In this document: positions 3,315 to 28,783 of the stretch, piece by piece
Numbering within the stretch: the stretch's first letter is position 1
How the letters are laid out: every line of letters begins with the position of its first letter
NCBI GenBank assembly: GCA_964653185.1
Contig: CAZZDX010000002.1
Span: forward strand, 1 to 34,597
Source of the DNA: an uncultured Bacteroidales bacterium
Lineage (GTDB): Bacteria; Bacteroidota; Bacteroidia; Bacteroidales; CAZZDX01
Length of the DNA stretch: 34,597 nt
Reading direction: 5' to 3'
Notes under the pieces: generated by a model
What the model saw: the letters and a program-made list of their open reading frames with translations, nothing else
Databases searched by the model: none
What the model was told of the DNA's origin: nothing
Program-made: the position numbers and the translations under genes

Positions 3315-5477
3315 TTATTTATTGTTTTTTCTTGATTCTATCAGGATATTAAGCATTTTAATTCCACATTCAGATATTACAGTTCCTGGTCCAAAGATAG
3401 CTATTACTCCTGCGTCATATAGGAATTGATAGTCCTGTGGAGGGATAACTCCGCCAGCAACTACCATAATATCATCTCTTCCTGATTTTTTAAGTTCTTT
3501 AATAACTTGTGGTATTAATGTCTTATGTCCTGCTGCCAAACTTGATATTCCGAGTATATGAACGTCATTTTCAACAGCTTGTTGTGCTGCTTCTTTTGGC
3601 GTTTGAAACAGAGGTCCAATATCTACATCAAAGCCCATATCAGCATGTGCTGTTGCAACAACTTTTGCTCCTCTGTCATGACCATCTTGTCCCATTTTAG
3701 CAATCATTATTCTTGGTCTGCGTCCTTCTAATTTTTCAAATTCGTCGGCTAATTTTCTGGCTTTTGCAAAGCCCTTATCATTTGATATTTCCATAGAGTA
3801 AATTCCTGATATTGAACGTATACTAGCTTTATATCTACCGAATATTTTTTCGCAAGCTAATGATATTTCTCCTAATGTAGCACGTTTACGAGCTGCATCA
3901 ACAGAAAGTTCTAATAAATTACCTTTTCCTGTTTTACATGCATGAGTGATATTTTCCAAAGCTTTCTGAACTTGAGCATTATTACGTTCTTGTTTTAGTT
4001 TTTTTAGTCGTGTCAGTTGTGCTTCACGCACAGCAGTGTTATCTACTTCAAGGATGTCAATAGGAGCTTCTTTTTTAAGTTTATATTTATTGATTCCTAC
4101 AATAGTTTCTTTCCCGGAGTCAATACGGGCTTGTTTTCGTGCTGATGCCTCTTCTATACGCATTTTTGGTATGCCTGTTTCAATAGCTTTAGCCATACCG
4201 CCGAGTTTTTCAATTTCTTCAATTAATTTCCATGCTTTATGAGCAATTTCATTAGTTAAAAATTCAATATAATAAGAGCCGGCCCAAGGGTCAACGGATT
4301 TACATATATTGGTTTCTTTTTGCAGATATATCTGTGTATTACGTGCTATTCTTGCCGAAAAGTCAGTTGGTAAGGCAATAGCTTCGTCCAAAGCATTAGT
4401 ATGAAGTGATTGAGTATGACCAAGGACTGCTGACATAGCTTCAATGCATGTTCTGGCAATGTTATTATAAGGATCTTGTGCTGTCAAGCTCCATCCTGAA
4501 GTTTGGCAATGTGTTCTCAGGGATAATGATTTTGGATTTTTAGGGTTAAACTGCTTAACAATTTTAGCCCATAACATTCTTGCTGCCCGTAATTTGGCTA
4601 TTTCCATAAAATGGTTCATTCCTATGCCCCAAAAGAATGATATTCTTGGTGCAAAAGCATCAATATTTATTCCTGCTTTAATTCCTGTGCGCAGATAATC
4701 TAATCCGTCAGCTAAGGTATAAGCCAGTTCAATATCAGCAGTTGCTCCTGCTTCCTGTATATGATATCCGCTAATGCTTATAGAGTTAAATTTGGGCATT
4801 TTTTTAGAAGTAAATTCAAAAATGTCAGTAATAATTTTCATTGAAGGTAATGGTGGATATATATATGTGTTGCGGACCATAAATTCTTTTAAAATATCAT
4901 TTTGAATAGTGCCAATCAGTTTTTCTACAGGAACGCCTTGTTCTTCAGCTGCAACAATATAAAAAGCCATAATAGGCAATACAGCACCGTTCATAGTCAT
5001 TGACACAGACATTTTATCAAGTGGTATCTGGTCAAACAGTATTTTCATATCTAATATAGAGTCAATAGCTACGCCTGCTTTTCCTATATCACCGATAACG
5101 CGTTCATTGTCAGAGTCATAGCCGCGGTGTGTTGCCAGGTCAAAAGCAACAGATAAGCCCTTTTGTCCTGCTGCCAGGTTTCTTCTGTAAAAGGCATTTG
5201 ATTCTTCAGCAGTAGAAAATCCTGCATATTGACGTATGGTCCAGGGTTTTATAACATACATTGTTGAGTAAGGTCCTCGTAAAAAAGGAGCAATGCCAGC
5301 AGCATAGTTCAGATGTTCCATTTCTTTTAAATCAGAAGCACCATAAACAGGTTTGACATTAATTTGTTCAGATGTCATCCATTGTTTTTTATTTCCGATT
5401 TTTTTCTCCCATTCGTTAAAAGGAACAGATTCTTTCAGATTAAGTTTATAATCTATATTTTTAAAATTTGGTCGCAT
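3315..5477 (-). CDS. scpA: Methylmalonyl-CoA mutase, single chain with catalytic TIM-barrel and C-terminal B12-binding domain
   Basis: 720 aa. Contains the FLRGPY and RQYAGF motifs, ISISGYH, and the C-terminal cobalamin-binding DxHxxG ([13 protein letters not shown]) with GGVIP. Confidence 0.95.
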
Positions 5478-10039: not shown

Positions 10040-11356
10040 TTATAATACTTTAATGAGTTTTTCAAGTTCAATTCCTCTTGATGCTTTAATCAATATTGAA
10101 GCAGATGATATAGGATTTTTTTCTAACCATTTAAAAGCAACATCAACATCAGAAAATTTTTTATAATTATTGCTGTCAACAGATGAGAATATTTTGCCAA
10201 TTAGTATGATTTTATTAAATTTTTGTTTTTCTAACAATTTCAAAATTTTTTTATGTTCTTTAATGCTTTGGTTCCCAAGTTCAAGCATATCACCAATTAT
10301 TACAATTTTATTTTCAATTTTTAGCTGTTTAAAATTTTTTATAGCAGCTTTCATACTTGTCGGATTAGCATTATATGCATCTAAAATGATTTTATTTTTT
10401 GCGGTTTCAATAAATTGTGAGCGATTACTTACTGGCTTGTATTTTTCAATAGCATTTTTAATATTTTTGGGTGGGACATCAAAATAACTTCCTATTGCTA
10501 TTGCTGCTATTATATTCTCAAGATTATATTCACCTATAAGTTGTGATTGTATTACAGTATGGCTTTTATTTTTTATTGTATTATTTTTTAAGTTCCATTT
10601 TATTTTTACATAAGGATTATTTTCTAATACTTTCCCATAGCAATATGCATTTGTTTTTGTTCCATAAGTTATTTTTTTTATCTTTTCTGACAATTTTACA
10701 ATTGCCTTACTGTTGATATTAACAAAAGCAATTCCATTATTTTTTTTAATATAATTAAAGAGTTCATTTTTTGCATTTATAATTCCTTTAATATTTTTAA
10801 AACCTTCTAAATGAGCGGTTCCTATATTTGTTATAATACCAAAATCAGGTTGTGATATTTCGCATAGTTTTTTGATTTCTCCTATATGATTGGCTCCCAT
10901 TTCAATGACAGCAATTTCCGTATCCGGAGTTATAGATAGCACTGACAGAGGCACTCCAATATGATTATTAAAATTTTTAAAACTAGCAATAGTTCTATAT
11001 TTTTTACTTAAAATAATATTAATCAGTTCTTTTGTGCTGGTTTTACCATTAGTTCCTGTTATTCCTATTACTTTTGTTTTTAGTTGTTTTCTGTGATGCT
11101 TTGCCAGTTCCTGTAAAGTTTTTATAACATTATCAACTAATATATATTGTTTGTTTTTATAGTATTTTTTTTCATCAATTATTGCAAAAGCAGCTCCTTT
11201 TTTTAATGCAACACTTGCAAATTTATTGCCATTAAAATTTTCTCCTTTAATACTAAAAAATAATGAATTTTTTTGGATTTTACGGGTATCTATACAGATT
11301 GTAGGATATTTTGTATATATATTATATAACAAATTTATATTTGTTTGCATTGTCAT
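10040..11356 (-). CDS. murF: UDP-N-acetylmuramoyl-tripeptide--D-alanyl-D-alanine ligase
   Basis: 438 aa Mur ligase with P-loop GITGTNGKTSTKE and DAYNANP. It is located next to gldJ rather than in the dcw cluster. Confidence 0.9.
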   Translation of the reverse strand: MTMQTNINLLYNIYTKYPTICIDTRKIQKNSLFFSIKGENFNGNKFASVALKKGAAFAIIDEKKYYKNKQYILVDNVIKTLQELAKHHRKQLKTKVIGITGTNGKTSTKELINIILSKKYRTIASFKNFNNHIGVPLSVLSITPDTEIAVIEMGANHIGEIKKLCEISQPDFGIITNIGTAHLEGFKNIKGIINAKNELFNYIKKNNGIAFVNINSKAIVKLSEKIKKITYGTKTNAYCYGKVLENNPYVKIKWNLKNNTIKNKSHTVIQSQLIGEYNLENIIAAIAIGSYFDVPPKNIKNAIEKYKPVSNRSQFIETAKNKIILDAYNANPTSMKAAIKNFKQLKIENKIVIIGDMLELGNQSIKEHKKILKLLEKQKFNKIILIGKIFSSVDSNNYKKFSDVDVAFKWLEKNPISSASILIKASRGIELEKLIKVL

Positions 11357-18155: not shown

Positions 18156-18183
18156 CCGCTACCGCACGATTGTATCGTGTGGT
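18156..18183 (+). repeat. REP hairpin (type III), left member of the inverted pair flanking RAYT remnant 2
   Basis: ccgctaccgcacgattgtatcgtgtggt is the exact reverse complement of 18431-18458. Arm accgcacgat pairs with atcgtgtggt with one G:T wobble and loop tgt. Confidence 0.85.
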
Positions 18184-18191
18184 ATTTATTT

Positions 18192-18365
18192 TTATTTAAT
18201 AACAATAACATTATCTAACATTCCTTTTTCTTTTTGGCAATAATGTAAACTATCAATTATTATGTCTTTATATTCGTTTCTTGTAAATACATCTAACCAT
18301 TCAACTACTGCAAAACTAACAAAATAAACTCCTTCTGGATTATGAAATTTGTAATTACTACTCAT
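18192..18365 (-). pseudogene. IS200-like / RAYT tyrosine transposase remnant, N-terminal 57 codons only
   Basis: My own translation (the ORF is below the track cutoff): MSSNYKFHNPEGVYFVSFAVVEWLDVFTRNEYKDIIIDSLHYCQKEKGMLDNVIVIK*. It matches the usual N-terminus of Bacteroidetes Y1 transposases (YF.TF.VV.W.DVFTR..YK.III.SL.YCQ..KG) but stops before the HUH motif. Confidence 0.65.
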
Positions 18366-18430
18366 AAGTCAAATGTAATAAAAGTTATTGTTTTTATTAA
18401 CGAACATTAAATTATTATTTCTGTTTATAA

Positions 18431-18458
18431 ACCACACGATACAATCGTGCGGTAGCGG
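18431..18458 (-). repeat. REP hairpin (type III), right member of the inverted pair
   Basis: accacacgatacaatcgtgcggtagcgg is the reverse complement of 18156-18183, 28/28. Confidence 0.85.
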
Positions 18459-20065: not shown

Positions 20066-20198
20066 AAAATTATTTTTTTAATAAATAGAATATACAAATT
20101 TTTAAAAATTTTATTAACATTATTTTCTTGCAAATTGTTAATTAAAAAATGTTTGCAAAAATTTCCGTATCATATATTATACGCCTAATGCAGACGAA

Positions 20199-20337
20199 AT
20201 TTTAAAGTTTTTATTTTACAATTTTCAATTTTCAGTTTTTAATTTACAATTTAACGTTCCGAGTTCCGAGTTCAAAGTTCAAAGTTCAAAATTCATAATC
20301 TGTAATCCGTAATCTATAATTTTCAAGTATCCAGTTT
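20199..20337. repeat. Register-locked heptamer mosaic array (about 20 units), ftsA-ftsZ spacer
   Basis: Plus-strand units in one register: attttaa agttttt attttac aattttc aattttc agttttt aatttac aatttaa cgttccg agttccg agttcaa x3 aattcat aatctgt aatccgt aatctat aattttc aagtatc. Confidence 0.85.
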
Positions 20338-22397: not shown

Positions 22398-22411
22398 TAA
22401 TATATTTTAAC

Positions 22412-22547
22412 AAGACAAAGGCACAAAGTTCAATCGTTTGTCGTTTGTCGTTTTAAGTTTCAAGTCCCAAGTTCAAAGTTCAAAACTCACATTTCAACAA
22501 GTTCAATGTAAATAATTCATAATTCATAATTTTTTAGCATCCAGTTT
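22412..22547. repeat. Heptamer mosaic array, murC-ftsQ spacer
   Basis: Reads caaaggcacaaagttcaa tcgtttg tcgtttg tcgtttt aagtttc aagtccc aagttca aagttca ... aattcat aattcat. It shares 21-nt and 14-nt blocks with 28692-28754. Confidence 0.8.
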
Positions 22548-23927: not shown

Positions 23928-23945
23928 TCTATATTATGTTCATTA

Positions 23946-24103
23946 ATAATTGTAATGATTGTAAAGATTTTTTTAAAGTCCTTATCCATAATCTTTCCAA
24001 TCTTTTCAATCTTTCCAATCTTTTCAATCTTTTCAATCTTTTCAACAAAGTGTTAATATCTCAGTTCATATATCATTATTCATAAATGATTTATCTATAC
24101 TTA
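23946..24103. repeat. Composite VNTR element, family X, copy 2 (six 9-mers), overlapping the murG 3' end
   Basis: attgtaatg attgtaaag - atttttttaaagtccttatccataat - ctttccaat/cttttcaat x6 (23993-24046) - aaagtgttaatatctcagttcatatatcattattcataaatgatttatctatactta. It is colinear with 9873-10020. Confidence 0.8.
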
Positions 24104-25217
24104 TGTACATGCTATTTACCATATTTATTATTTCTTCAGCTATTAAGTCAGCAGAATTTTTAAAAGCCATTTTTGAAATATTATTTTCCAGTTCTGTTTG
24201 TTGTCTTTGATTATTTAACAAGTCAAGGACTGTTTCCTTTAATTTTTCTTTTGCCTGATTATCTTTAATTATAATAGCTGCATTTTTATTTACCAGAGCC
24301 ATGGCATTTTTTGTTTGATGGTCTTCTGCTACATTAGGCGAAGGAATAAGTATAGCTGGTTTACCCAATGCACATAGTTCTGATACAGCAATTGCTCCTG
24401 CTCTTGACACAATAATATCAGCACAGGCATAAGCATAATCCATTTTTGTAATAAAGTCATAAACTTTTATAATGTTATCATCAATATTTTGAGCAGCTTG
24501 TTTTGCAAGAGCAAAATAAGATTTTCCTGTTTGCCATAATATTTGGATATTATTATGAACAAAAGGTCTTAAATTTTTATGAATACTTTCATTAATTGTT
24601 TTAGCGCCTAAGCTTCCACCAATTACGAGCAATGTTTTTTTGTGTTTTGACAACTTAAAATATTCAAGGGCTTTTTCTTTTTTATGTTCAAAGTTTGAGA
24701 ATTCCTGTCTGATAGGATTTCCTGTAAGAATAATTTTTGATTTTGGAAAAAATTTATCCATATTATCATAAGCAACACATATTTTATTTACATGTTTGGC
24801 AAGTAATTTATTTGTGATACCCGGAAAAGAATTTTGTTCCTGTATAAGTGTTGGTATTTTTTTGTTTGTAGCAATTTTAAGTATAGGACCGCTGGCATAG
24901 CCTCCTGTTCCGACGACAGCATCCGGTTTAAAATTTTTTATTATTTTTTTGGCTTTAATCATACTTAATATCACTTTAAAAGGGAAAGACAGATTTTTTA
25001 ATGATAATCGTCTTTGTAATCCACTAATCCACAGACCTTTAATATTATATCCGGCAGCAGGCACTTTATCCATTTCCATTTTATTTTTTGCACCTACAAA
25101 AAGTATTTCAATATTATCAATCTTTTTTTTTAGAGCATTTGCTATAGCAATGGCAGGGAATATATGACCTCCTGAGCCACCTCCACTAATGATTATTTTA
25201 AATTTATTTTGTTTCAT
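24066..25217 (-). CDS. murG: Undecaprenyldiphospho-muramoylpentapeptide beta-N-acetylglucosaminyltransferase
   Basis: 383 aa. N-terminal G-loop ISGGGSGGHIFPAIAIA, plus LVIGGSLGA and SRAGA. About the last 12 codons lie in the family-X repeat. Confidence 0.93.
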   Translation of the reverse strand: MKQNKFKIIISGGGSGGHIFPAIAIANALKKKIDNIEILFVGAKNKMEMDKVPAAGYNIKGLWISGLQRRLSLKNLSFPFKVILSMIKAKKIIKNFKPDAVVGTGGYASGPILKIATNKKIPTLIQEQNSFPGITNKLLAKHVNKICVAYDNMDKFFPKSKIILTGNPIRQEFSNFEHKKEKALEYFKLSKHKKTLLVIGGSLGAKTINESIHKNLRPFVHNNIQILWQTGKSYFALAKQAAQNIDDNIIKVYDFITKMDYAYACADIIVSRAGAIAVSELCALGKPAILIPSPNVAEDHQTKNAMALVNKNAAIIIKDNQAKEKLKETVLDLLNNQRQQTELENNISKMAFKNSADLIAEEIINMVNSMYISIDKSFMNNDI

Positions 25218-25272
25218 CAGTTTATATTTTTGTAACTATCTCGCTTTCAGTTACTTCGGGCTTTTGGCTTTT

Positions 25273-25363
25273 AGTTTCTATTTTCCAATTTCCAGTTTCC
25301 AGCTCCAAGTTTCAAGTTCCAAGTTCAAGGTTCAAGGTTCATAATCCGTAATTCATAATTTAA
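25273..25363. repeat. Heptamer mosaic array (13 units), ftsW-murG spacer
   Basis: Units: agtttct attttcc aatttcc agtttcc agctcca agtttca agttcca agttcaa ggttcaa ggttcat aatccgt aattcat aatttaa. Confidence 0.8.
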
Positions 25364-25406
25364 TAACTATCTTTGTTCATAAAAACTTCATCAGTAACAG
25401 CTGGGT

Positions 25407-26537
25407 TTAATTTTTTTCAGTTTCTTTACTAACGCTTAGAACTATACCAACAGTAATGCTCATAAACAATATTGAAGTTCCGCCCATACTTACAAAAGGC
25501 AATGTTTGTCCTGTAACAGGCAATATATTAACAGCTACAGCCATATTTATAAAAGCTTGGAATACTAAACTAAAGCAGCATCCTATTGTTAAAAATGAGC
25601 CAAAATATCTTGGAATTTTTGTTGCTATTTTTATTCCTCTAAAAAGCAAAATAAGATACATTAATATTAATACAATTCCGCCAGTAAGTCCATATTCTTC
25701 AATTATTATAGCAAAGATAAAGTCAGAATAAGAATGTGGTAAGAAATTTCTTTGAGTACTTTTTCCCGGAGATTTACCAAGCAATCCGCCTGTGGCAATA
25801 GCTATTTTTGCTTGTTCTACTTGATAATCTTCTTTTTCATTTTTATCTCTAAAATTTTCTACACGAGTTTCCCATGTCTTTAAACGTCCTTGTTTTCCTT
25901 CAGATAAATTATTTAATATCACTATAAATAAAAAAAATGATACAGCACCAATAGTTAATAAAGATAATATATATTTAATATTAATTCTTCCAATAAACAT
26001 AATTATAATGCAGGTAACAAACAGGACAGCAGATGTTGAAAAATTTGCAGGCAGTATTAATCCACATATAATTAATATAGGAAGCATTATTGTTAAAAAG
26101 GCAGATTTAAAATTTATAATTTGTCCTTGTTTTTTAGATATTACTCTTGACAGATACATTATAAGAGCAAGTTTAGCAAAATCTGATGTCTGAAAACTAA
26201 TATTAACACCTGGTAAAGTTAACCAACGGCTTGCATCATTAAGATTAGTTCCAATAGCAAAGGTTAATATAAGAAGAGGTATAGCTATAATAAGTGCTAC
26301 TTGTGATATTCGTGAATAATAAGTATATTTAATCAGATGGGCTAAATAGATAAAAACAAATCCTAATAATATAATAATAAGTTGTCTGATGAGATAAAAC
26401 TCTGTATTTCCTCCCTGTTTTTTATATGCTAAAGAGCCGGTAGAGGTATATACTGCTAATATAGAAAAGACAGACAATATGATTACTACTGTCCATATAA
26501 CTTTATCGCCTCTTAATTTATTTAATATATTTAGCAT
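25407..26537 (-). CDS. ftsW: SEDS-family peptidoglycan polymerase FtsW
   Basis: 376 aa polytopic membrane protein with LPHSYSDFIFA and LPFVSMGGTSIL motifs. It occupies the dcw position between murD and murG. Confidence 0.9.
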   Translation of the reverse strand: MLNILNKLRGDKVIWTVVIILSVFSILAVYTSTGSLAYKKQGGNTEFYLIRQLIIILLGFVFIYLAHLIKYTYYSRISQVALIIAIPLLILTFAIGTNLNDASRWLTLPGVNISFQTSDFAKLALIMYLSRVISKKQGQIINFKSAFLTIMLPILIICGLILPANFSTSAVLFVTCIIIMFIGRINIKYILSLLTIGAVSFFLFIVILNNLSEGKQGRLKTWETRVENFRDKNEKEDYQVEQAKIAIATGGLLGKSPGKSTQRNFLPHSYSDFIFAIIIEEYGLTGGIVLILMYLILLFRGIKIATKIPRYFGSFLTIGCCFSLVFQAFINMAVAVNILPVTGQTLPFVSMGGTSILFMSITVGIVLSVSKETEKN

Positions 26538-26571
26538 TCTGAATTTATTTATAAAATATTACTCTTTAGAT

Positions 26572-26646
26572 ATTGTAATAATTGTAATGATTAAAAAAAT
26601 TATTTTTTTACAAGTCCTTCTATCCATAAATCTTTTCAATCTTTTT
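26572..26646. repeat. Family X element, copy 3 (short)
   Basis: attgtaata attgtaatg ... tttttttacaagtccttctatccataaatcttttcaatc. It has the same order of blocks as copies 1 and 2. Confidence 0.6.
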
Positions 26647-27195
26647 TTACAGATTTCTAACTACTTGTTTAAATTGTCGTCCACGGTCTTCATAATCTTT
26701 AAATAAATTAAAACTTGCACATGCAGGTGATAGCAGAACTACATCTCCTGATTTTCCAAGATAATAAGCAAAGCTGACAACTTCAGCCATTGATTTTGTA
26801 TTAGCTATAAATTTTATTTTATCAGCAAAAGCATTATGTAATTTTCTGTTATCAATTCCAATACAAACTATTGCTTTCACTTTTTCTTTTACAACATCTT
26901 TGAGCATAAAATAATCAGTATTTTTATCTTGTCCGCCAGCAATCCATATTACGGGTTTTGTCATATTTTTAAGAGCAAACCATGTTGAGTTTATATTTGT
27001 TGATTTTGAATCATTCACAAACTCAATGCCATGAACATTTGTAATAAATTCCAGTTTATGTTCAATATTTTTAAAATCAGAAAGACATTCTTTAATAATT
27101 TGTTTTCTGATATTAAATATTTTAGAAGGTATTGCTTCTGCCATATTTCTATTTATATTCTGTTTTCCTTGCAATGCTAAACTTTCTATTGACAT
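26647..27195 (-). CDS. murD: MurD C-terminal domain only (5'-truncated murD; possible pseudogene or split gene)
   Basis: The 182-aa ORF aligns by eye to the last ~40% of UDP-N-acetylmuramoylalanine--D-glutamate ligase: ...EHKLEF...NDSKSTNINST...IAGGQDKNTDY...LLSPACASFNLFKDYEDRGRQF. It has no P-loop and no N-terminal Rossmann-like domain. A stop lies 4 codons upstream of the ATG, and the remaining 200 bp up to mraY is heptamer repeat. Confidence 0.85.
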   Translation of the reverse strand: MSIESLALQGKQNINRNMAEAIPSKIFNIRKQIIKECLSDFKNIEHKLEFITNVHGIEFVNDSKSTNINSTWFALKNMTKPVIWIAGGQDKNTDYFMLKDVVKEKVKAIVCIGIDNRKLHNAFADKIKFIANTKSMAEVVSFAYYLGKSGDVVLLSPACASFNLFKDYEDRGRQFKQVVRNL

Positions 27196-27225
27196 TATTT
27201 TTAATTAATTTTAATTTCCATTTAT

Positions 27226-27393
27226 AGTTCCAAGTTCCAAGTTTCAAGTTCCAAGTTTCAAGTTCCAAGTTTTAAGTTTCAAGTTCAAAGTTTCAAGTTC
27301 AAAGCACACAACTCACAACTCACAACTCACAACTCACAACTCACAACTCATAATTCATAATTCATAATTTCAAGTTCCAAGTTTCTAATAATT
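27226..27393. repeat. Register-locked heptamer mosaic array (24 units), mraY-murD spacer
   Basis: 11 units of agtt[c/t][c/t/a]a type, then agcacac, aactcac x5, aactcat, aattcat x2, aatttca, agttcca, agtttct, aataatt. All are in one 7-bp register. Confidence 0.9.
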
Positions 27394-27396
27394 TTC

Positions 27397-28653
27397 TTAT
27401 CTGATTTTCAATGTTATAATAGTTAAGACAGCGAGAAATATTCCAATAATCATAAATCTATTTACTATTTTAGGTTCCGGGCATCCTTTTTTTTGATAAT
27501 GATGATGTAAAGGAGCCATGAGATAGAATCTTTTTCCTTGTCCATTTTTTTTCTTGGTATATTTAAAATAGCTCACTTGAATTATTACAGACAAGCTTTC
27601 TATAAGAAAGGTTCCGCATAGCACAGGCAATAATAGTTCTTTGCGTATCATTATTGCAAATACAGCTATGATACCGCCTATAGCCAAACTTCCTGTATCT
27701 CCCATAAACACCTGAGCCGGATAAGAATTATACCACATAAAGCCGATACATGCTCCTACAAAAGCACTGACAAATACAGTTAGTTCTCCTATATTAGGTA
27801 TATACATTATATTAAGATAATCAGCAAATACAAGATTGCCTGATACCCAAGCCAGTATTCCTAATGTGGCACCGATAATAGCAGAAGAGCTAGTGGCTAA
27901 TCCGTCCAAGCCGTCAGTAAGATTAACACTGTTTGATACAGCACATACTATTAATATAACTATAGGTATAAATATTAGCCATGTAAACCTTTTATAATCA
28001 TTACCGAGCCATGATAACAGGACAGAATAATCAAATTCATTATTTTTAATAAAAGGTATAGTTGTTTTTACTGATTTTACCGGCTCTTTAAATAATGCTT
28101 TAAAAGATTTATCATTATTATTTATGTTTTTTTTTGTCTGTTCCTGATAAGTAATTTTTGATTCAATATGTTTTTCTTTAATGACGATTGAATCATTAAA
28201 ATACATAGTTATACCTATTATTAATCCAAGTCCTATTTGCCCTAATATTTTAAATTTAGCTGCCAAGCCCTTTTTATCTTTTTTAAATACTTTAATATAG
28301 TCGTCAATGAACCCAACTATTCCAAGCCAAACAGTTGAGATAATTATTAAAATTATATATATATTATCCAGTTTTGTAAAAAGCAAAGCAGGTATTAAAA
28401 TAGCTCCGAGTATAATTAGTCCACCCATTGTAGGAGTGCCTTGTTTTTCTTTTTGTCCTTCTAGTCCTAAATCCCTGACAGTTTCTCCTACTTGTTTTCT
28501 TTTTAAGAAATTAATTAATTTTTTTCCGAATAAAATTGTAATAACTAATGAAGTTATAACAGAGAGAGCGGCACGGAATGATATATATTGAAACATTCCT
28601 GCACCCGGGAAGTTAAGTTCCGTGTCTAAATAATTAAATAAGTAATAGAACAT
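27397..28653 (-). CDS. mraY: Phospho-N-acetylmuramoyl-pentapeptide-transferase
   Basis: 418 aa polytopic membrane protein with [21 protein letters not shown] and APLHHHY. Confidence 0.95.
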
Positions 28654-28656
28654 ATT

Positions 28657-28783
28657 AATTATGAATTATGAATTATGAATTATAAAGTTTCAAGTTCAAT
28701 CGTTTGTCGTTTATCGTTTCAAGTTTCAAGTTTCAAAGTCCAAAGGCACAAAGTACAAAGTTCAATATTCAAAATTTGTAATT
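28657..28783. repeat. Heptamer mosaic array (18 units), murE-mraY spacer
   Basis: aattatg x3 aattata aagtttc aagttca atcgttt gtcgttt atcgttt caagttt x2 caaagtc caaaggc acaaagt x2 tcaatat tcaaaat ttgtaat. The first block is the inverse of the cataatt words elsewhere. Confidence 0.85.

Follow-up and report, generated by a model that had tools for sequence, protein, structure and literature searches.

Throughout a whole environmental clade of uncultured bacteria, the catalytic two-thirds of MurD are gone from the conserved dcw locus, while the third domain of the enzyme is retained as a stand-alone protein under full purifying selection. MurD, a single chain of three domains, is an essential enzyme and serves as an antibiotic target in essentially all peptidoglycan-making bacteria. 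Our literature search found no description of a clade-wide, stand-alone MurD domain 3 without the catalytic MurD domains at the dcw locus. The case described here was met in a contig of an uncultured Bacteroidales bacterium (CAZZDX010000002.1, assembly GCA_964653185.1), of which a stretch of 34,597 nucleotides was analyzed; this whole stretch is called the window below.

The window carries on its minus strand, at 18.5–34.4 kb, a dcw cluster of the standard Bacteroidota type, in the order mraZ, rsmH, ftsL, ftsI, murE, mraY, a 182-aa ORF, ftsW, murG, murC, ftsQ, ftsA, and ftsZ. The 182-aa ORF (26647–27195, minus strand, including a stop codon at 26647..26649), referred to here as MurD-C, lies between mraY and ftsW, the usual dcw place of murD. 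Directly upstream is an intact mraY (27397–28653, minus strand; Pfam Glycos_transf_4 and MraY_sig1), and the downstream neighbor is an intact ftsW (25407–26537, minus strand; Pfam FTSW_RODA_SPOVE, E = 6e-78). Between the stop of mraY and the start of ftsW there are 859 bp in total, far short of a complete murD, which takes up about 1.34 kb; a first, sequence-only reading of the window had put this gap at about 750 bp, a figure that covers the ORF and its upstream spacer but not the whole distance, and its point that the room is too small for murD still stands. By profile scores, murC, murE, murF (10040–11356, outside the dcw cluster block), mraY, murG, ftsW, and ftsI are all intact, as the same reading had stated for the remaining peptidoglycan-pathway genes. 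It had also assigned a repeat-derived tail to murG (24066–25217, in the minus-strand cluster); the gene stops at 24066 and the 9-mer array (23990–24045) follows downstream in the spacer, although MurG is indeed some 10–15 aa longer here, at 383 aa vs 367–374 aa in relatives.

The identification of the 182-aa ORF as the C-terminal part of MurD, already made from the letters of the DNA, is upheld by a family model, a domain profile, and structure alignment alike. NCBIfam TIGR01087 (murD) matches residues 3–180 of the ORF to model positions 263–440 of 441 (E = 3.6e-53), and this C-terminal stretch is all that aligns to the full-length model; the score of 181.2 bits is under the curated full-length cutoff of 211.95 bits. 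Mur_ligase_C (PF02875) is the only Pfam domain in the ORF (E = 1.3e-8; 36.1 bits vs a cutoff of 28.4), the comparison with solved structures aligns the ORF best to MurD residues ~257–443, and tblastn with eight complete Bacteroidota MurD proteins aligns their residues ~265–447 at the ORF. The reported lack of the N-terminal domain and of the P-loop ATPase domain is equally clear at this locus: Pfam finds no MurD_N, MurD-like_N, or Mur_ligase N-terminal domain in the ORF, Mur_ligase_M and a GxxGK[ST] P-loop are absent from it, and the same tblastn detects no MurD domain 1–2 in the 34.6 kb window, the N-terminal 265 residues matching only the paralogs murC, murE, and murF. With stops in every frame, the 201-bp upstream spacer leaves no room for an N-terminal domain, and the in-frame stop four codons before the ATG, noted earlier, can be read directly.

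Residues 1–45 of the protein (27061..27195, minus strand) align to E. coli MurD 256–300 and correspond to the end of MurD domain 2, its final strand and helices; they carry the LALQGK(H)N..N motif, which in the window reads GKQNINR. Residues 46–182 (26650..27060, minus strand) make up a complete MurD domain 3—that is, the D-glutamate-binding C-terminal domain covered by Pfam Mur_ligase_C—with the motifs HKLE, NDSKSTN, GGQDK, and LLSPACASF..F..YEDRG. In an AlphaFold2 model, residues 46–182 are confident (pLDDT 84–96) and residues 1–45 are poor (43–60), and the latter are thus predicted not to fold confidently alone; the best 33 Foldseek matches of the model are all MurD structures, and the predicted fold of domain 3 is MurD-like.

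Relatives with the same truncation and the same gene order were found. Seven diverged lineages, counting that of the window, have mraY, a gap of 45–201 bp, a 180–183-aa Mur_ligase_C ORF, and ftsW, the gap being 83 bp in P0027, 49 bp in P0011, 79 bp in L089 (P0003), 52 bp in L090 (P0015), 45 bp in L094 (P0107), and 58 bp in the three assemblies L096–L098 (P0012). All of them fall in one clade of the C-domain tree, which comprises ~24 clusters, all 180–183 aa long, without any full-length member. Their MurD-C proteins are only 59–78% identical, and a truncation common to so deep a clade rules out the recent event that had been among the explanations offered at first. The window MraY is 66–72% identical to MraY at other truncated-clade loci. 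An independent tree of concatenated MraY and FtsW again makes the five loci with DNA monophyletic, with L010 as sister, followed by L014 and L013; the MurD of L010 groups with proteins that NCBI names Lentimicrobium sp. On these trees, the truncated clade is a group of uncultured Bacteroidales that is sister to Lentimicrobium-like genomes. As to the lifestyle of the organism, a methylmalonyl-CoA mutase gene in the window (3315–5477) and an aldehyde:ferredoxin oxidoreductase gene about 4 kb past its left end (L219, 5849–7615) suggest that it is anaerobic.

A far larger truncated family was considered and rejected. Among the best 120 matches in a protein search with the 182-aa ORF, almost all are 180–183 aa long and they are of mixed origin; judged by tree and loci, most of the 182-aa matches are fragments of complete genes, the breaks being due to contig ends, to frameshifts in homopolymers, or to long-read assemblies with many errors. 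Many are almost the same as the complete murD of GTDB genomes and represent fragment calls, and those of L005 and L093 were called from error-ridden long-read assemblies. Such look-alike ORFs all start at the same Met because this residue is conserved inside Bacteroidota MurD. Across GTDB representative genomes, 79 of the 80 relatives listed (48–62% identity) stay open for 260 codons or more upstream of this Met, and the 80th sits at a contig edge; no member of the truncated clade is among these 80, which says nothing on the clade's presence in GTDB. The frameshifted murD genes of two other Bacteroidota species (L006/L008 and L091/L092) yield the same 182-aa C-terminal ORF, called from the same conserved Met, but their N-terminal 243–267 codons are present just upstream and one base restores the frame, whereas the window lineage has physically lost the N-terminal part; these frameshifted loci fall outside the truncated clade. 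The one-base frameshift lies at a T5 run in L006 (9900–10000) and L008 (1040–1165) and at an A10 run in L091 (2920–2935) and L092 (1012–1027), in each case reproduced in two independent assemblies, and could be real (e.g., with slippage at the A10 run rescuing the frame) or reflect a systematic error of sequencing.

Remnants of the lost codons are still legible in the spacers of the clade. In the window, the 33 nt before the ATG (27196..27228, minus strand) read T I N G N stop N stop L K I in the frame of the ORF and match the I-N-I-N-x-x-x-F-x-M stretch that is conserved in complete MurD of Bacteroidota. One frame of the L089 spacer reads MKRIVVLGAF-stop-KIKIVININQTPFTM-HIHELALQGK, in which the first ~9 murD codons are joined to the codons before the conserved Met, and L090 retains the TAATG in which the mraY stop and the former murD start overlap. 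Although they belong to different subclades, L090 and L096 have in common a remnant of 22 nt, TAATACTAAATATTAACTAAAT, TAA stop included (ILNIN-stop-I); the remnant of L094 reads NGN-stop-stop-FKITTM, and its NGN-stop recurs in the window. By these remnants, the truncation is an internal deletion of murD codons ~10–250 that is older than the clade's radiation, and no rearrangement.

The spacer between mraY and the ORF in the window (27196–27396, minus strand) is 201 bp long and consists mostly of heptamer repeats. Its tandem-heptamer part (27229..27396, minus strand) is built from the coding-strand units ACTTGRA, ATTATGA, and GTTGTGA; TRF reports three abutting arrays, AGTTCCA x11.3 (27226–27304), CACAACT x6.3 (27307–27350), and TCATAAT x3.1 (27348–27369), totaling ~144 bp, with two to three further units beyond them, so that the count of 24 heptamers given in the sequence-only reading is a fair one. 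The description of the upstream ~200 bp as pure repeat is right for the greater part, but fails for the last 33 nt before the ATG, which are the decayed murD codons. The idea that the array sits in place of the missing 5' part of murD has to be given up: relatives with the same deletion have spacers of 45–83 bp that contain no repeat arrays, and similar arrays occur in five other dcw spacers of the window. Altogether six dcw spacers are enlarged, to 66–272 bp, whereas in the relatives L089, L090, L094, and L096 the same genes overlap or nearly abut; those at 20066–20337, 22398–22547, 23928–24065, 25218–25406, 27196–27396, and 28654–28783 measure 130–272 bp. The enlarged spacers are mosaics of ATTATGA, ACTTGRA, GTTGTGA, AAACGAC, and the 9-mer GAAAAGATT, always in the coding-strand orientation. 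The heptamer array is a lineage-specific spacer expansion that is separate from the ancestral deletion.

Several further observations concern the repeats themselves. The spacers between MurD-C and ftsW (26538–26646) and between murG and murC (23928–24065) contain a common sequence of ~60 nt, GAAAAGATT..ATGGATA.AAGGACTT..TAAAAAAAT...TTACAATCATTACAATTATTA, which points to a dispersed intergenic element more than to slippage at each site independently. A metagenome scan with the heptamer pattern ACTTGRAACTTGRAACTTG returned at least 120 stretches, and the 80 that were examined come from unrelated organisms with a GC content of 32–70%; none of these 80 is like the window, and none has murD. Because such arrays occur in many unrelated organisms, (ACTTGRA)n is not a marker of this genome. 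It often forms a closely spaced inverted pair with copies 25–270 bp apart (L099, L102, L131, L137, L139, L156, and L176), which suggests hairpin-forming repeat elements in these other organisms. Between thiL and ftsZ, the window holds a 33-nt inverted repeat, 94% complementary (18156–18458), around a 57-aa ORF (18192–18365, minus strand; protein MSSNYKFHNPEGVYFVSFAVVEWLDVFTR...). This ORF resembles the N-terminus of an IS200/RAYT-type Y1 transposase but has no Pfam match; the whole could be what is left of a transposase, or a miniature element. An Rfam search of the window gave no match.

Two trivial explanations of the truncation have to be weighed, namely that it is an error of assembly and that it is a gene in decay. 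A short-read assembler could have collapsed or jumped the heptamers and dropped ~0.8 kb of murD, a misassembly that the sequence-only reading had raised; tandem repeats do lie at the junction, and one contig (L002, Logan SRR8437275) breaks inside the array, being identical over the part that it covers. However, the exact 182-aa protein is found on 10 contigs, the four of these that were compared are 100% identical to the window, and L001, L003, and L004, which stem from the JGI samples 3300028276, 3300005645, and 3300028169, agree with it at 100% identity over the whole mraY-to-ORF junction, down to each repeat unit. The junction is thus the same in four contigs that come from three or more independent samples, and across pipelines, the array of ~144 bp is short enough for read pairs to span, decayed murD codons border the deletion, and diverged relatives that are free of repeats carry the same truncation, all of which leaves an artefact next to no chance. 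A pseudogene decaying after a recent deletion, with the function of MurD lost or replaced, could account for the decayed codons and the stops in frame that precede the ATG, yet in each of the seven lineages examined the ORF is undisrupted, open at 180–183 codons there and in ~24 clusters, its domain-3 motifs are conserved, and its rate of change is like that of intact MurD and of essential neighbors. Among the five loci, MurD-C is 59–78% identical, as against 64–70% for MurE, 51–76% for FtsW, and 58–63% for MurG; the ratio of MurD-C to MraY identity is 0.90, vs 0.95 ± 0.07 for the same region of complete MurD (461 pairs at matched divergence); and dN/dS is 0.08–0.20, with saturated dS. Judged by these values, MurD-C is under purifying selection about as strong as that on complete MurD and therefore appears to be a functional stand-alone protein and no debris, and decay after a recent deletion is very improbable.

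Outside the deleted part, a complete MurD resembles the window ORF in its position in the mraY–ftsW locus and in sequence and predicted fold over residues ~256–437; its residues 1–255, which comprise domain 1 and the portion of domain 2 with the P-loop, have no counterpart in the ORF. Conservation at individual sites was compared between 24 members of the truncated clade and 79 complete MurD proteins. Positions are given in E. coli MurD numbering, checked with an E. coli MurD sequence that reproduces all published landmark residues and the solved-structure offsets. N271, R302, and D317 contact ADP in MurD, and T321, K348, S415, L416, and F422 contact D-Glu, according to PMC9780078, which cites Bertrand et al. 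(1999). In the clade, the equivalents of D317, K319, T321, and S415 are kept in 100% of members, K348 in 96%, and R302 and F422 in 92% each. The equivalents of H267 and N271, conserved in 100% of the 79 complete proteins, are kept in only 46% of the 24 clade members; the Met next to N271 and the G-N after K348, invariant in complete MurD, are relaxed as well, and N268 is kept in 88% of the clade. The window protein itself has the equivalents of D317 and K319 (nucleotide), T321, K348, and S415 (D-Glu), and N268, with Y in place of F422, and it carries the changes H267Q, N271R, and R302K. Residues 3–45, the remnant of domain 2, are no less conserved than in the complete enzyme, with a mean pairwise identity of 0.60 in the clade vs 0.54 in complete MurD.

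The missing MurD domains 1–2 were sought beyond the window as well. No Mur ligase was found in ~10 kb beyond the window's left end, and no MurD domain 1–2 in the 12–20 kb flanks of L094 and L096. Against a set of 5.8 billion proteins, neither a profile of 30 N-terminal halves nor the N-terminal half of the closest complete relative brought up a family consisting of domains 1–2 only among the best 120 matches; nor was there one among the best 150 matches of a 296-aa fragment with the N and M domains against 1.84 billion representatives. The short N-half matches were all fragments of complete genes, at contig ends or frameshifts, and one of them ends in translated Nextera adapter. Because these protein searches list only the best 120–150 matches, the missing partner is weak evidence. 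In the literature, our search met no report of a truncated or split murD or of a two-polypeptide Mur ligase.

In the ancestor of the clade, an internal deletion in murD thus took away the UDP-MurNAc-L-Ala-binding domain 1 together with most of domain 2, the P-loop ATPase. What is left of the frame restarts at the Met conserved in Bacteroidota MurD and encodes ~45 residues of domain 2 and the whole of domain 3, and the resulting 180–183-aa protein has been kept between mraY and ftsW throughout the clade's radiation. The product of MurD should still be required because MurC, MurE, MurF, MraY, and MurG are intact, and the loss of MurD would indeed be surprising, as had been remarked from the outset. 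We propose that the fragment would most likely still serve the D-glutamate-adding step, with domain 3 acting in trans as the D-Glu-binding lid of a module that binds the nucleotide and the UDP-sugar and has its gene elsewhere. This module could be a separate MurD domain 1–2 gene, in line with the split gene that the sequence-only reading had named, or another Mur ligase. In its most parsimonious form, to which we give even odds, domain 3 would close over an active site to which a module with its own complete domain 2 contributes, in trans, the parts that bind ATP and the UDP-sugar. This form is favored because the domain-3 residues that contact D-Glu and nucleotide are conserved (92–100%) while H267 and N271, two positions carried over from the lost domain 2, vary, which is what would be expected if the partner brought its own complete ATP site. 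A partner ending before residue 256 should have left N271 conserved, which counts against a trans-acting domain 3, and with a partner that contains the whole of domain 2 the conservation of residues 3–45 needs another reason, such as docking. Also against it are the R302K and N271R changes of the window protein, the lack of any partner in the window, in the flanks, or among the best-listed protein matches, and the fact that no Mur ligase acting as two polypeptides turned up in the literature search.

Two other functional readings have to be considered. A complete second murD, either a paralog or horizontally acquired, may carry out the ligation elsewhere in the genome, leaving the dcw domain 3 to another job, for example the sensing or handing over of D-Glu or of the UDP-MurNAc-dipeptide, or the scaffolding of the MraY/FtsW/MurG machinery. 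Such neofunctionalization would agree with the relaxed adenine-pocket residues H267 and N271, with the R302K change of the window protein, a hint that ATP chemistry may no longer involve it, and with the absence of a domain 1–2-only ORF family among the best-listed matches; Mur-ligase folds are, moreover, kept in non-ligase roles, and the model matches a subunit of the plastid-encoded RNA polymerase (8qma_O and 8r6s_Q). It is the main rival, but we consider it rather unlikely: the nucleotide-contacting D317, K319, and R302 are 92–100% kept, which is unexpected for a pure D-Glu binder or scaffold; a redundant fragment beside a complete paralog usually decays, whereas this one changes at a rate equal to that of catalytic MurD; and no second murD is seen in the window, in the flanks, or among the best-listed protein matches. 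Alternatively, the genome may hold no MurD domain 1–2 at all, and domain 3 may dock in trans on the UDP-sugar/ATP module of another Mur ligase, or on an unrelated enzyme, which we regard as a distant prospect. Among the Mur ligases, MurC would be the obvious candidate because its N-terminal half is the window's closest paralog match to the MurD N-terminal half; across 89 invariant columns of MurC, none is changed in two or more clade members.

Fission of a Mur ligase is not known to have been described. The known fusions (MurE-MurF NF008896, MurC-Ddl NF011171, and MurF-Alr NF008897), which give partial profile matches here, are likewise rearrangements of Mur genes or domains, but they join complete enzymes, whereas in the window a single enzyme is reduced to one domain. 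Two weak Foldseek matches of the model provide precedents for the functional readings. MurT-GatD (6h5e) has a Mur-ligase fold that works only with a partner subunit, and the plastid PAP11/MurE-like protein, a PEP subunit (8qma_O), has a Mur-ligase fold in a non-ligase, structural role. Both are only 11–12% identical and keep more than domain 3, and they are no relatives of the truncated protein.

The finding also bears on how peptidoglycan synthesis is reconstructed from the genomes of the clade. In NCBI records from MAGs of Bacteroidales and Bacteroidota, the stand-alone MurD domain 3 is named "cyanophycin synthetase" or "hypothetical protein" (clade proteins NTW31753.1, HPS46460.1, HQH18717.1, HQI46997.1, HOT89601.1, and MFA4851962.1), and JGI names it a full MurD ligase; both kinds of name are misleading for pathway reconstruction, and pathway-completeness tools would score the genomes of the clade as lacking murD. 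Should domain 3 in fact dock on the module of another enzyme, one catalytic core would serve two steps by means of exchangeable specificity domains, and the clade would possess the first Mur ligase with separable subunits, a new variant of a pathway that is regarded as invariant.
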